DNA from: a virus | Taxonomy: Duplodnaviria > Heunggongvirae > Uroviricota > Caudoviricetes | Direction: 5' to 3' (one strand) | DNA length: 44,068 nt | IMG/VR virus record: IMGVR_UViG_2541047745_000010 | Part shown: positions 30,738 to 32,187 of the stretch, in pieces | Layout of the letters: the number at the start of each line of letters is the position of its first letter | How positions within the stretch are numbered: the stretch's first letter is position 1 | Notes under the pieces: model-generated | The model's input: the letters and a program-made list of their open reading frames with translations, nothing else | Databases searched by the model: none | Told to the model about the DNA's origin: nothing | Translations under genes and position numbers: made by a program

Positions 30738-31229
30738 TCACTCTCCTTTGATGCGAATGCCAGTGGTACTCATTCTCCTGATTTCCCAGAGCACACGAGG
30801 AATACCACCGTTTCCGACCGGATCGCGTTTACTCCGCAGGGCGACGCTTGATTCCGCCCAGCTTTTTCTTGGAGGAAGCTCTTTCACACGAACAAAACCA
30901 GCTGCGCGAAGAGATGCTCCTGATTCATCTGCCCGGGTGTACGTAATACAACGTTGATAACCCATAGCTTTTGCTGCCCGCCAGACAGCACCATAAAGCG
31001 CGCTGTTAGCGTTGCGTTCTCCTGTGGTACATGTGCGATTTACTTCAAGCGTTAATCCATCGTCCAAATGTCGTGCAACAGGTCGACCAGCTGTCGCCAC
31101 ACCTATCAATTCTCCGGCATCATTTATCAGACCAATGCTGAATTTATGCCCAACAGGTGGTTTATTGTGTCGGTGATGTCTGGATATAAACGCCTTCGCA
31201 ACACGAAGAGTAACCGGTGAAATTTGCAT
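30738..31229 (-). CDS. hypothetical nin-region protein
   Basis: 163 aa from MQISPVTLR (ATG at 31229); ends ...IRIKGE. Confidence 0.6.
   Translation of the reverse strand: MQISPVTLRVAKAFISRHHRHNKPPVGHKFSIGLINDAGELIGVATAGRPVARHLDDGLTLEVNRTCTTGERNANSALYGAVWRAAKAMGYQRCITYTRADESGASLRAAGFVRVKELPPRKSWAESSVALRSKRDPVGNGGIPRVLWEIRRMSTTGIRIKGE
30741..30763. repeat. conserved gene-junction motif, copy 1 (ctctcctttgatgcgaatgccag)
   Basis: Minus strand reads CATTCGCATCAAAGGAGAG: C-terminal IRIKGE codons of the upstream gene, containing the RBS of the downstream gene. Confidence 0.7.
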
Positions 31230-31231
31230 TC

Positions 31232-31708
31232 TCACTCTCCTTTGATGCGAATGTTTACAGCCTGACAAGCCTCTTCGAGAACCCAGTCAACAGCGTCTTT
31301 CCATGCTCCGGTTTCGACTGGCGGATTTTCACGCTTAACCTGTTCATAGAAGCGCACCGCTTTAACCAGTCCTTCCGGCGCTGGGTGCCCTGTCTGCGCC
31401 CTGACCCACGCCACTCGTGCCGGATTCATATGGCACATGTTGTGCCCTCTTTCTTCATGGTAATGCTCTTTACCCTCGTTAAACGGCAACGCCTCATTCA
31501 GCCCGGCACTTCTGAAATCAGCGTGTAATTGCTCCAGCGCTGCCTCACAGGGGGTACCAATTAATGTGAGATAATCGAAAAGATTGGCGCATAAACCATA
31601 ATTTTGAGAAAACACTCCGCCGGGTTTTGCCCCGTTCTTCAGCCACAAATCATAAGCAATATAAAACCCGTAAAGCTGTTGCCTGATATTTTCTTTGATT
31701 TCTTGCAT
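31232..31708 (-). CDS. hypothetical nin-region protein
   Basis: 158 aa; ends ...NIRIKGE. Confidence 0.6.
   Translation of the reverse strand: MQEIKENIRQQLYGFYIAYDLWLKNGAKPGGVFSQNYGLCANLFDYLTLIGTPCEAALEQLHADFRSAGLNEALPFNEGKEHYHEERGHNMCHMNPARVAWVRAQTGHPAPEGLVKAVRFYEQVKRENPPVETGAWKDAVDWVLEEACQAVNIRIKGE
31235..31253. repeat. conserved gene-junction motif, copy 2 (ctctcctttgatgcgaatg)
   Basis: Same 19-bp motif encoding IRIKGE-stop plus RBS. Confidence 0.7.
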
Positions 31709-31803
31709 TATTTGTTACCGCCCTTTCGGGCGGCCTCCTGATGTTCTGAGGGTGCAGAAATCCCTCCGGTTAAGGATCGAATTTTTAACAGTGCTAAATT
31801 TAA

Positions 31804-32160
31804 TTATTCAGTTCTGGATTTTGTCACCCTGCGTATCCGCGCTTTCGCGTTACGCTCAATCTGAATTAACTTTTCTATATTTTTCCGTCTTTCCTGTTCC
31901 TCCTGGCGCAATAGCCTTACATCATCTGCCAGTCTGGTTTCTCTTTTCGCCACAGAGAGCATCCAGTCAAATGGCTCCACAACTGCACCGCAGATTTTAC
32001 AGCGGACCTGACGCTCTTTTTCGTCAACCCGGACAGAAGCGTGATGGCAATATGGTCTTTCCGATGGCTCATAAAGAAAATTAACCTGATTACGAGGGTC
32101 ATCCTCTTTTACCGGAAATAAAACGATATTGCTTAACTCATCTTCTGGTTTTATTTCCAT
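31804..32160 (-). CDS. hypothetical Cys/His-containing protein
   Basis: 118 aa from MEIKPE (ATG at 32160, AAAGGAGAGG RBS); CHH...CKICG putative zinc-binding. Confidence 0.55.
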   Translation of the reverse strand: MEIKPEDELSNIVLFPVKEDDPRNQVNFLYEPSERPYCHHASVRVDEKERQVRCKICGAVVEPFDWMLSVAKRETRLADDVRLLRQEEQERRKNIEKLIQIERNAKARIRRVTKSRTE

Positions 32161-32164
32161 GCTC

Positions 32165-32187
32165 CTCTCCTTTGATGCGAATGCCAG
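32165..32187. repeat. conserved gene-junction motif, copy 3 (ctctcctttgatgcgaatgccag)
   Basis: Third copy, here lying in the 5' leader/RBS of the 31804..32160 gene. Confidence 0.7.

Follow-up and report, generated by a model that had tools for sequence, protein, structure and literature searches.

Short conserved boundary or flanking sequences are an accepted route to the mosaicism of lambdoid phage genomes (Clark et al., 2001, as cited in PMC2327257, PMC3029335, and PMC3233612). According to the citing descriptions, these lambdoid boundary sequences (Susskind and Botstein, 1978; Botstein, 1980; Clark et al., 2001, on the HK620 genome) are short, are conserved between unrelated modules, and are located at gene boundaries, and the exchange is attributed to homologous recombination. 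[quoted passage not shown] In T4-type phages, PeSL cassettes have been described, in which repeated expression signals flank non-essential ORFs, and recombination shuffles, inserts, and deletes the genes (Arbiol et al., 2010, PMC2839356; PMC4122927). At the protein level, a "+GE" C-terminal motif of the Ea22 proteins has been reported as a protein motif, the significance of which was left unexplained (Dydecka et al., 2020, PMC7093339).

Here, we analyze a motif that is repeated at gene junctions of a prophage. It is best read as a portable junction that belongs with the "boundary sequences" of Susskind and Botstein and of Clark, a linker of a known type that involves no new mechanism. HK620, the phage in which boundary sequences were reported, carries the exact motif itself, at the hkaG/hkaF junction. 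This likeness is drawn from the citing descriptions, and the linker string for comparison with the boundary sequences of Clark et al. (2001) is GCTGGCATTCGCATCAAAGGAGAG. A literature search for the motif or the peptide found only a lambda PCR primer.

Results

Three copies of the motif at gene junctions of one array

The 19-mer CTCTCCTTTGATGCGAATG is present in three exact copies on the plus strand of the window (the whole stretch of DNA that was analyzed, 44,068 nt), at 30741-30759, 31235-31253, and 32165-32183, exactly where the first-pass annotation had placed them. No further copy was found in the window when up to three mismatches were allowed. By chance, 0.02 copies are expected, and none of 100 dinucleotide shuffles reached three copies, which rules out a chance repeat. 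A repeat search assigned the three copies to one 39-nt family with 72-85% identity, the sole junction-associated repeat family between 26000 and 36000. On the minus strand, which is the coding strand, the motif reads CATTCGCATCAAAGGAGAG; it encodes ..IRIKGE and includes the Shine-Dalgarno (SD) sequence AAGGAG. Copies A (32165) and C (30741) have 23 nt in common (CTGGCATTCGCATCAAAGGAGAG, minus strand), and copies B (31235) and C have 22 nt in common (CATTCGCATCAAAGGAGAGTGA); the distance is 494 bp from B to C and 930 bp from A to B. The features of the region, in the direction of transcription, and the recombination genes of the prophage are:

32218..32655, minus: DUF977/LygF/Ren-like gene, upstream of copy A
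32138..32221, minus: vestigial ead/ea22-type mini-ORF of 27 codons (VSEISYQASITAGIRIKGEEHGNKTRR, then stop), the GTG of which overlaps the LygF stop (ctGTGA)
32158..32187, minus: linker copy A, ctgg-CATTCGCATCAAAGGAGAG-gagc-ATG, TGA lost; SD and start of the phrog_1621 zinc-ribbon gene
31804..32160, minus: gene of a 118-aa zinc-ribbon protein (phrog_1621), cassette D0, starting 4 nt past copy A
31232..31708, minus: 158-aa gene, cluster U1, function unassigned, with the C-terminal linker tail NIRIKGE
31227..31253, minus: linker copy B, CATTCGCATCAAAGGAGAG-TGA-ga-ATG; tail ..VNIRIKGE (then stop) of the 158-aa gene, SD and start of the Mom-like gene
30738..31229, minus: Mom-like 163-aa gene, a cassette bounded by linker copies B and C
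30734..30763, minus: linker copy C, ctgg-CATTCGCATCAAAGGAGAG-TGA-t-ATG; tail ..TTGIRIKGE (then stop) of the Mom-like gene, SD and start of the 87-aa gene
30473..30736, minus: 87-aa gene (phrog_1714), cassette D3, starting 4 nt past copy C
29638..30462, minus: 274-aa "ea"-type gene of the array, not joined by this linker
38151-40784, plus: RecE (exonuclease VIII), with RecT the prophage's own annealing recombination system
40720-41586, plus: RecT, the partner of RecE in this system

The geometry proposed in the first-pass annotation, an IRIKGE ending encoded twice together with ribosome-binding site, stop, and ATG spacing, was found at copies B and C. The 158-aa ORF and the Mom-like ORF, respectively, take their six C-terminal codons (IRIKGE) from these two copies; a TGA follows the motif, and the ATG of the next gene lies 4-5 nt past it (TGAgaATG at copy B, TGAtATG at copy C). 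The spacing from AAGGAG to the ATG is 6 nt in copies A and C and 7 nt in copy B, within the range of 5-9 nt expected for coupled junctions. Judging from this geometry, translation of the downstream gene is probably coupled to termination at the upstream gene. The junctions resemble those of the nin region in that the stop adjoins the next start, the upstream ORF contains the SD sequence, and the genes form a non-essential early-operon array. However, the ATGA overlaps of the nin region are convergent features of 4 nt without extended shared sequence, whereas the linker is a block of about 30 bp, identical by descent even though the gene pairs that share it are unrelated.

Copy A is different. 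It is located in a spacer of 57 nt between the stop of the DUF977/LygF-like gene (32218) and the ATG at 32160, and it had been regarded as a mere leader with a ribosome-binding site. It does supply the SD sequence and the start region of the zinc-ribbon gene, but it is also the 3' end of the collapsed 27-codon ead/ea22-type ORF, which reads 21 nt beyond the A of the next gene's ATG. The first 8 or so codons of this mini-ORF align with ea22 of lambda and hkaG of HK620 at their 5' ends, and the linker tail is joined to them directly. Its left context recurs in 24 loci (class L0), and the copy A variant GAGCATGGAAAT is also present at 38 of 135 junctions elsewhere.

The label "nin-like", given to the region initially, fits its position but not its gene content, because several of the genes belong to families that, in lambda and HK620, reside in the PL operon, in its exo-xis "ea" region. 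The N-terminus of the 274-aa protein matches HkaE of HK620, which is annotated in GenBank as similar to P22 eaA. A search of the window for two further junction sequences showed that it lacks both the 5' ead junction AAAGGAGGCAACCAGTGAGC and the related linker of the AAGIKEESE/AAGIKVEAE type.

Distribution of the junction among phages and prophages

The motif is clearly not confined to this genome. It is exact at the 3' end of lambda ea22 (..SDAGIRIKGE, then stop), and at least 120 IMG/VR contigs contain the 19-mer without a mismatch. A 34-nt version of the linker is present in 387 GenBank phage records, including the P1-like phage P7, and in 3,079 of the 5,426 complete E. coli genomes (57%), at a median of 2 and a maximum of 11 places. 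It joins unrelated gene pairs in lambda, HK620, Stx phages, P22-like phages, and P1-like phages, which bears out the earlier suggestion of a portable linker.

To characterize the junctions, we used 135 of them from 120 IMG/VR contigs and the window; since the IMG/VR sample consists mostly of closely related E. coli prophages, the counts do not represent independent events. An in-frame stop lies 3 or 27 nt past the motif at 132 of the 135 junctions (94 immediately, 38 at 27 nt), that is, the motif marks gene boundaries elsewhere as well, and at 118 junctions an ORF of at least 30 aa begins 4-5 nt past the motif. The conserved block spans about -11 to +25, with conservation on the left side decaying from -1 to -11. 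The portable junction comprises about 30-37 bp, with the consensus (CGCGCC)GCTGG-CATTCGCATCAAAGGAGAG-TGA(K)ATG, and is identical to the 3' end of lambda ea22. Linker cassettes are common to PL-type (35 loci) and PR-type (54 loci) operon contexts. In lambda, the linker is intact though no ATG is present downstream (TGAGATC), and therefore the SD constraint alone fails to explain its conservation there.

A broad taxonomic spread was considered and rejected: among 46 matches in genome contigs, 32 were lambda DNA contamination, and about 4 are expected by chance. The real range of the linker is the enterobacterial phages.

Nucleotide versus peptide conservation

The residues K-G-E are AAA-GGA-GAG, that is, AAGGAG read in frame. 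Across 49 distinct haplotypes from unbiased samples, AAAGGAG is invariant, and the tail codons undergo changes, among which R>G is common and R>H, G>D, I>T, and E>D/G also occur. These data bear on the idea that the C-terminal (A)AGIRIKGE is a functional peptide tag of early accessory proteins, used for degradation, localization, or partner binding. Such a tag would account for the same 8-10 final residues on many unrelated proteins, for the AAGI..K.E pattern that is kept in diverged linker types, and for the "+GE" ending of Ea22 that was noted without explanation (PMC7093339). However, a tag would hardly tolerate radical substitutions next to SD nucleotides that never vary, nor would it be expected on the 27-codon vestigial ORF, which bears the tail too. 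The tail also lies outside the Pfam Ead_Ea22 domain. Moreover, homologues of the Mom-like protein elsewhere are intact and terminate in ..VLWEIRRMK, RRGV, or RRR directly before the stop, lacking the STTGIRIKGE tail. The tail is dispensable, as these naturally tail-less homologues show, and we consider a peptide tag very improbable.

The K/R-G-E C-terminus typical of the Ea22 family is present in the window proteins and in lambda Ea22 (IRIKGE, then stop), the same residues that end Ea22 proteins with divergent C-terminal domains. The family domain PF13935 (Ead_Ea22) was detected in lambda Ea22, in HK620 HkaG, and in four tested Ead-type upstream partners elsewhere, and in each of these it stops before the tail; the tail-bearing 158-aa and Mom-like proteins of the window have no PF13935 match. 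Unlike the "+GE" motif as described, the ending appears here to be the in-frame reading of the downstream SD sequence inside a shared junction, and it is also found on non-Ea22 proteins.

The conservation of nucleotides beyond the SD sequence, the overlap with the ribosome-binding site, the presence of several copies per genome, and the cassette-like arrangement of the genes could also indicate a cis-acting site, either regulatory (a translational operator or an sRNA target) or a site-specific recombination site with a dedicated recombinase, like integron attC. However, the three copies and the consensus folded no better than shuffled sequences (z from +0.2 to +0.9), and inverted repeats were absent at the copies, so that a structured RNA or hairpin site was rejected; an unstructured linker RNA is what would be expected if the ribosome-binding site is accessible. 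No promoter- or terminator-like sites were found that overlap the three copies. Furthermore, the PL operon, PR operon, and P1-like contexts have no consistently linked recombinase or regulator gene, and most loci (109 of 121) have a single copy within the fetched sequence. Taken together, a cis-acting site of this kind is highly unlikely.

The same results separate the linker from two known cassette types. Integron attC cassettes are similar in that a promoterless array of single genes is split by a recurring site and varies in content between genomes. In contrast to attC, the linker has neither an imperfect-palindrome hairpin nor a linked IntI-type integrase, and its exchange is presumed to be homologous rather than site-specific; assignment to the attC sites was therefore rejected. 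PeSL cassettes share with the linker short repeated expression signals beside non-essential ORFs in plastic genome regions. However, a PeSL consists of a promoter and a stem-loop terminator and is transcriptional, whereas the linker has neither of the two and is a translational junction that encodes a protein tail. As promoter- or terminator-like sites overlap none of the copies, a PeSL-type cassette was rejected as well.

Reassortment of the flanking genes

The first-pass annotation had proposed checking whether the genes on both sides of the motif vary independently, and they do. At the protein level, 11 upstream and 14 downstream clusters were seen in 33 combinations. At the nucleotide level, 15 left and 22 right flank classes formed 52 combinations, with a cycle rank of 18 and 47 four-gamete squares. 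Breakpoints were determined for 125 pairs of loci with an identity of at least 97% across the 500 nt on one flank of the motif and of less than 45% on the other. In 108 of these pairs, uninterrupted identity stops at most 8 nt before the motif (86 of 100) or at most 18 nt after it (22 of 25), and in the remaining 17 pairs it extends further, up to 120 nt.

Samples that were chosen by protein rather than by motif agree with the motif-chosen sample on the independence of the flanks. In the sample selected with the 87-aa protein, the linker precedes the gene in 58 of 79 loci, in 13 distinct upstream sequence contexts. In the sample selected with the Mom-like protein, the gene either has the tail and is followed by one of at least nine different downstream genes, or has no tail (..EIRRMK, then stop). 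Five loci have a U1-like gene, a single linker, and the 87-aa gene, that is, the gene order of the window without the 494-bp Mom cassette, which occupies exactly the interval between copies B and C. Thus, the two flanks assort independently of each other, and the motif is where the mosaic joints lie, as is characteristic of boundary sequences.

The usual alternative to this view in the field (PMC3233612) would place the joints differently. Illegitimate recombination could occur anywhere, and only those products would survive that keep the last 30 or so nucleotides holding the ribosome-binding site of the downstream gene, so that the shared sequence would be a selected remnant and not the point of crossover. 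This would explain why the tail is attached to unrelated gene bodies at non-homologous points, why Mom-like homologues exist with and without it, why the conserved block has a ragged left edge, and why the SD core is its sole invariant part. However, dozens of independent illegitimate events would be required to end at the same few nucleotides, and the flank combinations and four-gamete squares described above, with breakpoints mostly 2-8 nt from the motif, argue against such a coincidence. In addition, polymorphisms just to the left of the core (ACCGCTGG versus ACCACTGG) go with the right-hand gene, which fits crossovers within the shared patch. Bases without a role in ribosome binding (GCTGGCATTCGCATC) are also conserved, and the lambda linker is intact although no gene follows. 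A selected remnant therefore appears unlikely. Nevertheless, the ragged left edge and the tails on non-homologous bodies (..EIRRM joined to STTG in the Mom-like protein) indicate that non-homologous joints contributed too.

Discussion

The linker is probably the core of a portable gene junction that serves as a homology patch for the swapping of cassettes among lambdoid prophages and P1-like phages. In such a junction, the in-frame linker adds the short, dispensable tail (A)AGIRIKGE to the upstream protein, the codons AAA-GGA-GAG double as the SD sequence (AAGGAG) of the next gene, and the next ATG typically follows 1-2 nt past the upstream TGA. Since this junction is common to many accessory genes that are not related in other respects, the linker probably acts as a short patch of homology, at which cassettes have been exchanged, inserted, and deleted repeatedly, in the exo-xis region of PL as well as in the post-replication region of PR, with similar traffic among P1-like phages. 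The first capture of each new upstream gene presumably involved a non-homologous joint on the left margin of the linker. The conservation of the linker is then likely to reflect both the SD constraint and its spread by recombination.

Judged from the sequences, the exchange would proceed by homologous recombination at the linker, catalyzed by RecET/Red/Erf-type or RecA functions, and the prophage's own RecE/RecT are candidate catalysts of exchange at such short homologies. Published minimal efficient processing segments (MEPS) measure 23-27 bp in the case of Redbeta and 31-34 bp in that of RecA (PMC3945230). With 19-37 nt, the shared block comes close to this range; the copies in the window are identical over only 19-23 nt, at or below it, and therefore each event must be rare.

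A more far-reaching version would hold that the linker is the common 3' homology arm of a recombination-based cassette system, which circulates "ea"-type genes and variable Ea22 C-terminal domains between the PL and PR operons and P1-like phage-plasmids. The conservation beyond the SD sequence (GCTGGCATTCGCATC, kept in lambda without a following gene) would then be maintained because the linker promotes exchange, possibly aided by a phage factor. We consider this version rather improbable.

With the lambdoid boundary sequences, the linker shares the conservation of nucleotides between unrelated flanks and the location at gene boundaries. Documented here for the linker are the identity with the 3' end of lambda ea22, the occurrence in the PL and PR operons alike as well as in P1-like phages, the inclusion of SD, stop, and start, and the presence in 57% of complete E. 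coli genomes. The finding is unsurprising and refines known ideas for specialists.

The modular theory of phage evolution postulated a "linker" between modules, and this model has often been set aside because shared sequence is absent at most mosaic joints. The junction described here is a concrete and very widespread case of such a linker. Reassortment is measurable at a defined site of about 30 bp and is therefore directly testable by phage crosses. For annotation, the (A)AGIRIKGE tail and the 27-codon mini-ORF should be treated as features of the junction and not as protein motifs; the "+GE" ending of Ea22 is simply explained as the ribosome-binding site of the next gene, read in frame. Finally, the junction shows that genes of the exo-xis type move from one early operon to the other and also enter P1-like phages.

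Linker copies in the early-right operon

The 19-mer CTCTCCTTTGATGCGAATG of the plus strand, which reads CATTCGCATCAAAGGAGAG on the minus strand, the strand of the genes here, is present in exactly three copies in the window, at 32165, 31235 and 30741 (copies A, B and C), as the first-pass annotation had stated. By chance, 0.02 copies would be expected, and none of 100 dinucleotide-preserving shuffles attained three. No fourth copy is present in the window with up to three mismatches allowed, and a repeat search of 26000-36000 yielded no second junction-associated repeat family. 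Copies A and C have 23 nt in common, copies B and C 22 nt. The window is a complete Rac-like lambdoid prophage with the following features.

Features around the linker copies, in operon order
34981-33440, minus strand: O-like gene and DnaC-like loader, first in the early-right operon
minus strand: DUF1627/YdaW-like gene, next in this operon
minus strand: DUF977/LygF-like gene, next
32221-30473, minus strand: motif-bearing genes, next
32221-32138, minus strand: mini-ORF VSEISYQASITAGIRIKGEEHGNKTRR, 27 codons, start codon GTG, overlapping the stop codon of LygF
32187-32165, minus strand: copy A, inside the 57-nt spacer from the DUF977/LygF-like stop (32218) to the ATG at 32160
31253-31235, minus strand: copy B, 3' end of the 158-aa ORF (..VNIRIKGE), TGA 31234-31232, then the Mom-like ATG at 31229
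30759-30741, minus strand: copy C, 3' end of the Mom-like ORF (..TTGIRIKGE), TGA 30740-30738, then the ATG of the 87-aa gene at 30736
29638-30462, minus strand: 274-aa gene after the motif-bearing genes, N-terminus matching HK620 HkaE (GenBank: similar to P22 eaA)
29028-29240, minus strand: toxin gene of the Hok/Gef family, downstream of the cassette array, after the 274-aa gene
minus strand: NinB/Orf-like gene (PHROG NinB/Orf-like; Pfam DUF1367), after the hok/gef gene
minus strand: Q-like antiterminator gene, last in the early-right operon
plus strand: RecE, RecT, Xis and Int genes of the early-left operon

The region, previously described as nin-like, is so by position, but several of its gene families are the exo-xis 'ea' families of lambda and HK620. 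Copies B and C indeed encode a terminal IRIKGE and supply the ribosome-binding site, stop codon and ATG, as had been claimed. In contrast, the proposal that the third copy is only a leader does not hold, because copy A is the 3' end of the 27-codon ead/ea22-type mini-ORF. The GTG at the head of the spacer overlaps the LygF stop codon (ctGTGA), the first approximately eight codons align to the beginnings of lambda ea22 and HK620 hkaG, with the linker tail making up the remainder. Therefore the mini-ORF, judged by its sequence, is a vestigial, collapsed ead/ea22-type gene with its two conserved ends fused. The same haplotype is found at 24 other loci.

Several further elements were observed. A palindromic sequence of about 20 nt, TGTAACGCTGGCAGCGTTAC, is repeated three times (34595-34618, 34802-34825 and 34994-35017; spacings of 207 and 192 nt) within and just 5' of the O-like replication gene (repeat-search families D3, I1 and I5), and could represent a set of iterons or operators. 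The 274-aa gene contains an imperfect tandem 33-nt repeat at 30008-30072 (family D4; repeated peptide ..STNNFREISE..). A strong terminator-like hairpin (29521-29553) directly follows a small overlapping membrane-peptide ORF (start at ATGA, ~29641). A GC-rich hairpin without a T-run, GCCGCCC-GAAA-GGGCGG (31718-31734, minus strand), lies inside the 95-nt spacer 3' of the zinc-ribbon gene, 10 nt before the ATG of the 158-aa gene.

Distribution of the linker

The motif is not confined to this genome. The exact 19-mer was found in at least 120 IMG/VR viral contigs, and a 34-nt version in 387 GenBank phage records (Stx, P22-like Salmonella, HK-series and P1-like phages, the last comprising P7, D6 and SJ46) as well as in 3,079 of 5,426 complete E. 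coli genomes (6,751 places; median 2 and maximum 11 per genome). Of these places, 425 are plasmid-borne, the listed examples being ~94-97 kb. In phage P7, an identical 34-nt linker (88985-89018; L327) joins the Ead-like upf88.3 to upf89.0. Since the identical linker is present both in P7 and on E. coli plasmids, Ead-type cassettes cross between lambdoid and P1-like phages.

One genome per species was scanned (596 Gb; ~4 chance matches to the 19-mer expected). Escherichia, Shigella and Shimwellia were the true hosts among the 46 matches (L281-L326). Broad spread beyond enterobacteria was rejected, as 32 of the 46 matches are lambda DNA contamination, the contig in each case sharing 99.5-100% identity with phage lambda. 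Such contamination affects public assemblies of, among others, Streptomyces, Pseudomonas, Bacillus, Prevotella and Shewanella; the length of three of these contigs is ~48.4-48.5 kb.

In other lambdoid genomes, the motif was found at gene boundaries. It is the 3' end of lambda ea22 (..YLHMMSDAGIRIKGE-stop), and the published lambda PCR primer CTCTCCTTTGATGCGAATGCCAGC, as listed in PMC7247204, is the linker sequence; in HK620 it forms the junction of hkaG (eaD-like) and hkaF. Across 135 occurrences with at most three mismatches (120 loci and the window), an ORF of at least 30 aa begins 4-5 nt past the motif in 118 cases. An in-frame TGA directly follows the motif in 94 junctions, and 38 have the GAGCATG variant of copy A, in which the frame closes 27 nt further on. 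Conservation spans the positions from about -11 up to the ATG at +25, with the consensus CGCGCCGCTGG-CATTCGCATCAAAGGAGAG-TGAKATG.

In lambda (L122, 29847-29868 region), the linker is followed by TGAGATC in place of TGAGATG, and the sequence downstream matches a truncated version of a right-flank class that elsewhere opens with a 7-codon ORF; because of these two features, the ea22 junction looks like a decayed cassette boundary. A second conserved junction, ..AAAGGAGGCAACCA-GTGAGC.., borders ead/ea22-type genes at the 5' end (L001-L122; e.g., HK620 L121, ~3505-3545) behind several differing upstream sequences, with an upstream tail ..KGGNQ-stop, an embedded Shine-Dalgarno (SD) sequence and a GTGA stop/start overlap. 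It was not found in this form in the window.

Reassortment of the flanking genes

The linker serves as a shared junction module, where cassettes have been reassorted many times. Clustering of the flanking proteins gave 11 upstream and 14 downstream families joined in 33 combinations, which bears out the suggestion of a portable linker. The flanks also vary independently at the nucleotide level: the 15 classes on the left and the 22 on the right are joined in 52 combinations (cycle rank 18; 47 complete 2x2 'four-gamete' squares). Breakpoints were examined in 125 locus pairs in which one flank is at least 97% identical over 500 nt and the identity of the other is at random level. The identity run stops no more than 8 nt short of the motif in 86 of 100 pairs and no more than 18 nt past it in 22 of 25, together 108 of the 125; in the remaining 17 it is longer, up to 120 nt.

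Two samples picked by protein similarity, and hence unbiased as to the motif, agree with this assortment. The linker (0-1 mismatch) precedes the 87-aa gene in 58 of 79 loci, in 13 distinct upstream contexts. Mom-like proteins without the linker end in ..VLWEIRRMK, RRGV or RRR; those with it end in ..VLWEIRRM-STTGIRIKGE, and at least nine different genes come next. At five loci, a gene like that for the 158-aa protein, one linker and the 87-aa gene succeed each other, which is the order of the window minus the 494-bp Mom cassette between copies B and C.

Operon context was called from marker genes on the same strand. An early-right context (after O/P/DnaC/LygF, before rus/Q) was assigned to 54 loci and an early-left context (after exo/bet/gam/recT/abc2, before xis/int) to 35. 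Common to both are the downstream families D1-D4, D6 and D7 and the upstream families U0, U2 and U4.

The encoded tail and the Shine-Dalgarno sequence

Elsewhere, most upstream partners are Ead/Ea22-like, with a conserved N-terminal/coiled-coil domain (PF13935, which excludes the linker-encoded tail), a variable C-terminal domain and the common tail; neither of the two tail-bearing proteins of the window (158 aa and Mom-like) is an Ead/Ea22 protein. According to Dydecka et al., every Ea22 protein ends in '+GE', the significance being stated there as unknown (PMC7093339). K-G-E, encoded by AAA-GGA-GAG, is the SD sequence AAGGAG read in frame, ending 6-7 nt before the ATG. Across 49 distinct junction haplotypes of the unbiased samples, AAAGGAG (+10 to +16) is invariant, and the tail codons show synonymous and radical changes (R>G, which is common, R>H, G>D, I>T, IRI>ITT, E>D/G). 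The linker RNA has no structure beyond that of shuffled sequences (z +0.2 to +0.9), in keeping with an open ribosome-binding site. The downstream gene would be translated from the embedded SD sequence, and its translation is probably coupled to termination 1-2 nt upstream.

Other linker types precede Mom-like genes (L202-L280), with the tails RAAGIKEESE, AAGIKVEAE, AGIGVKGE, IRINGEG and GIQIQGGE before the stop codon. Each embeds an SD sequence and an overlapping stop/start, and their sequences suggest a set of junction modules, older and diversified, to which the linker of the window is homologous.

Mechanism and relation to known systems

Exchange would occur by homologous recombination inside the 19-37 nt of shared sequence, a length near the minimal efficient pairing segments given for Redbeta (23-27 bp) and RecA (31-34 bp) in PMC3945230. 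The same source describes Rad52-like phage recombinases, Rac RecT included, as driving exchange at short or diverged homologies; the prophage carries its own recE and recT. Because the left boundary is ragged and the Mom-like tail is a ..EIRRM/STTG fusion, each new upstream gene would first have been captured at the linker's left edge, via a non-homologous joint.

This kind of element is already known. The motif belongs with the 'linker' of the Susskind-Botstein/Botstein modular theory, as described in PMC2839356, and with the 'short conserved boundary sequences' of lambdoid phages credited to Clark et al. 2001 (in PMC3029335, PMC2327257 and PMC3233612). As HK620 carries the motif, it may be one of the examples of Clark et al. 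The ATGA overlaps of the nin region, as presented in PMC8022706, lack an extended shared sequence, which the linker has. T4-type PeSL cassettes (as outlined in PMC2839356) and integron cassettes are functional analogues, but the linker copies have neither the promoter and hairpin that define PeSLs nor an attC-like palindrome or a linked integrase.

Altogether, the original observation is confirmed, and its interpretation is supported with corrections. The details that appear to be new are the identity with the 3' end of lambda ea22, the explanation of '+GE', the vestigial mini-ORF, the use in P1-like phages as well as in both early operons, and the quantification of reassortment. The linker is a clean, testable instance of a classical idea.
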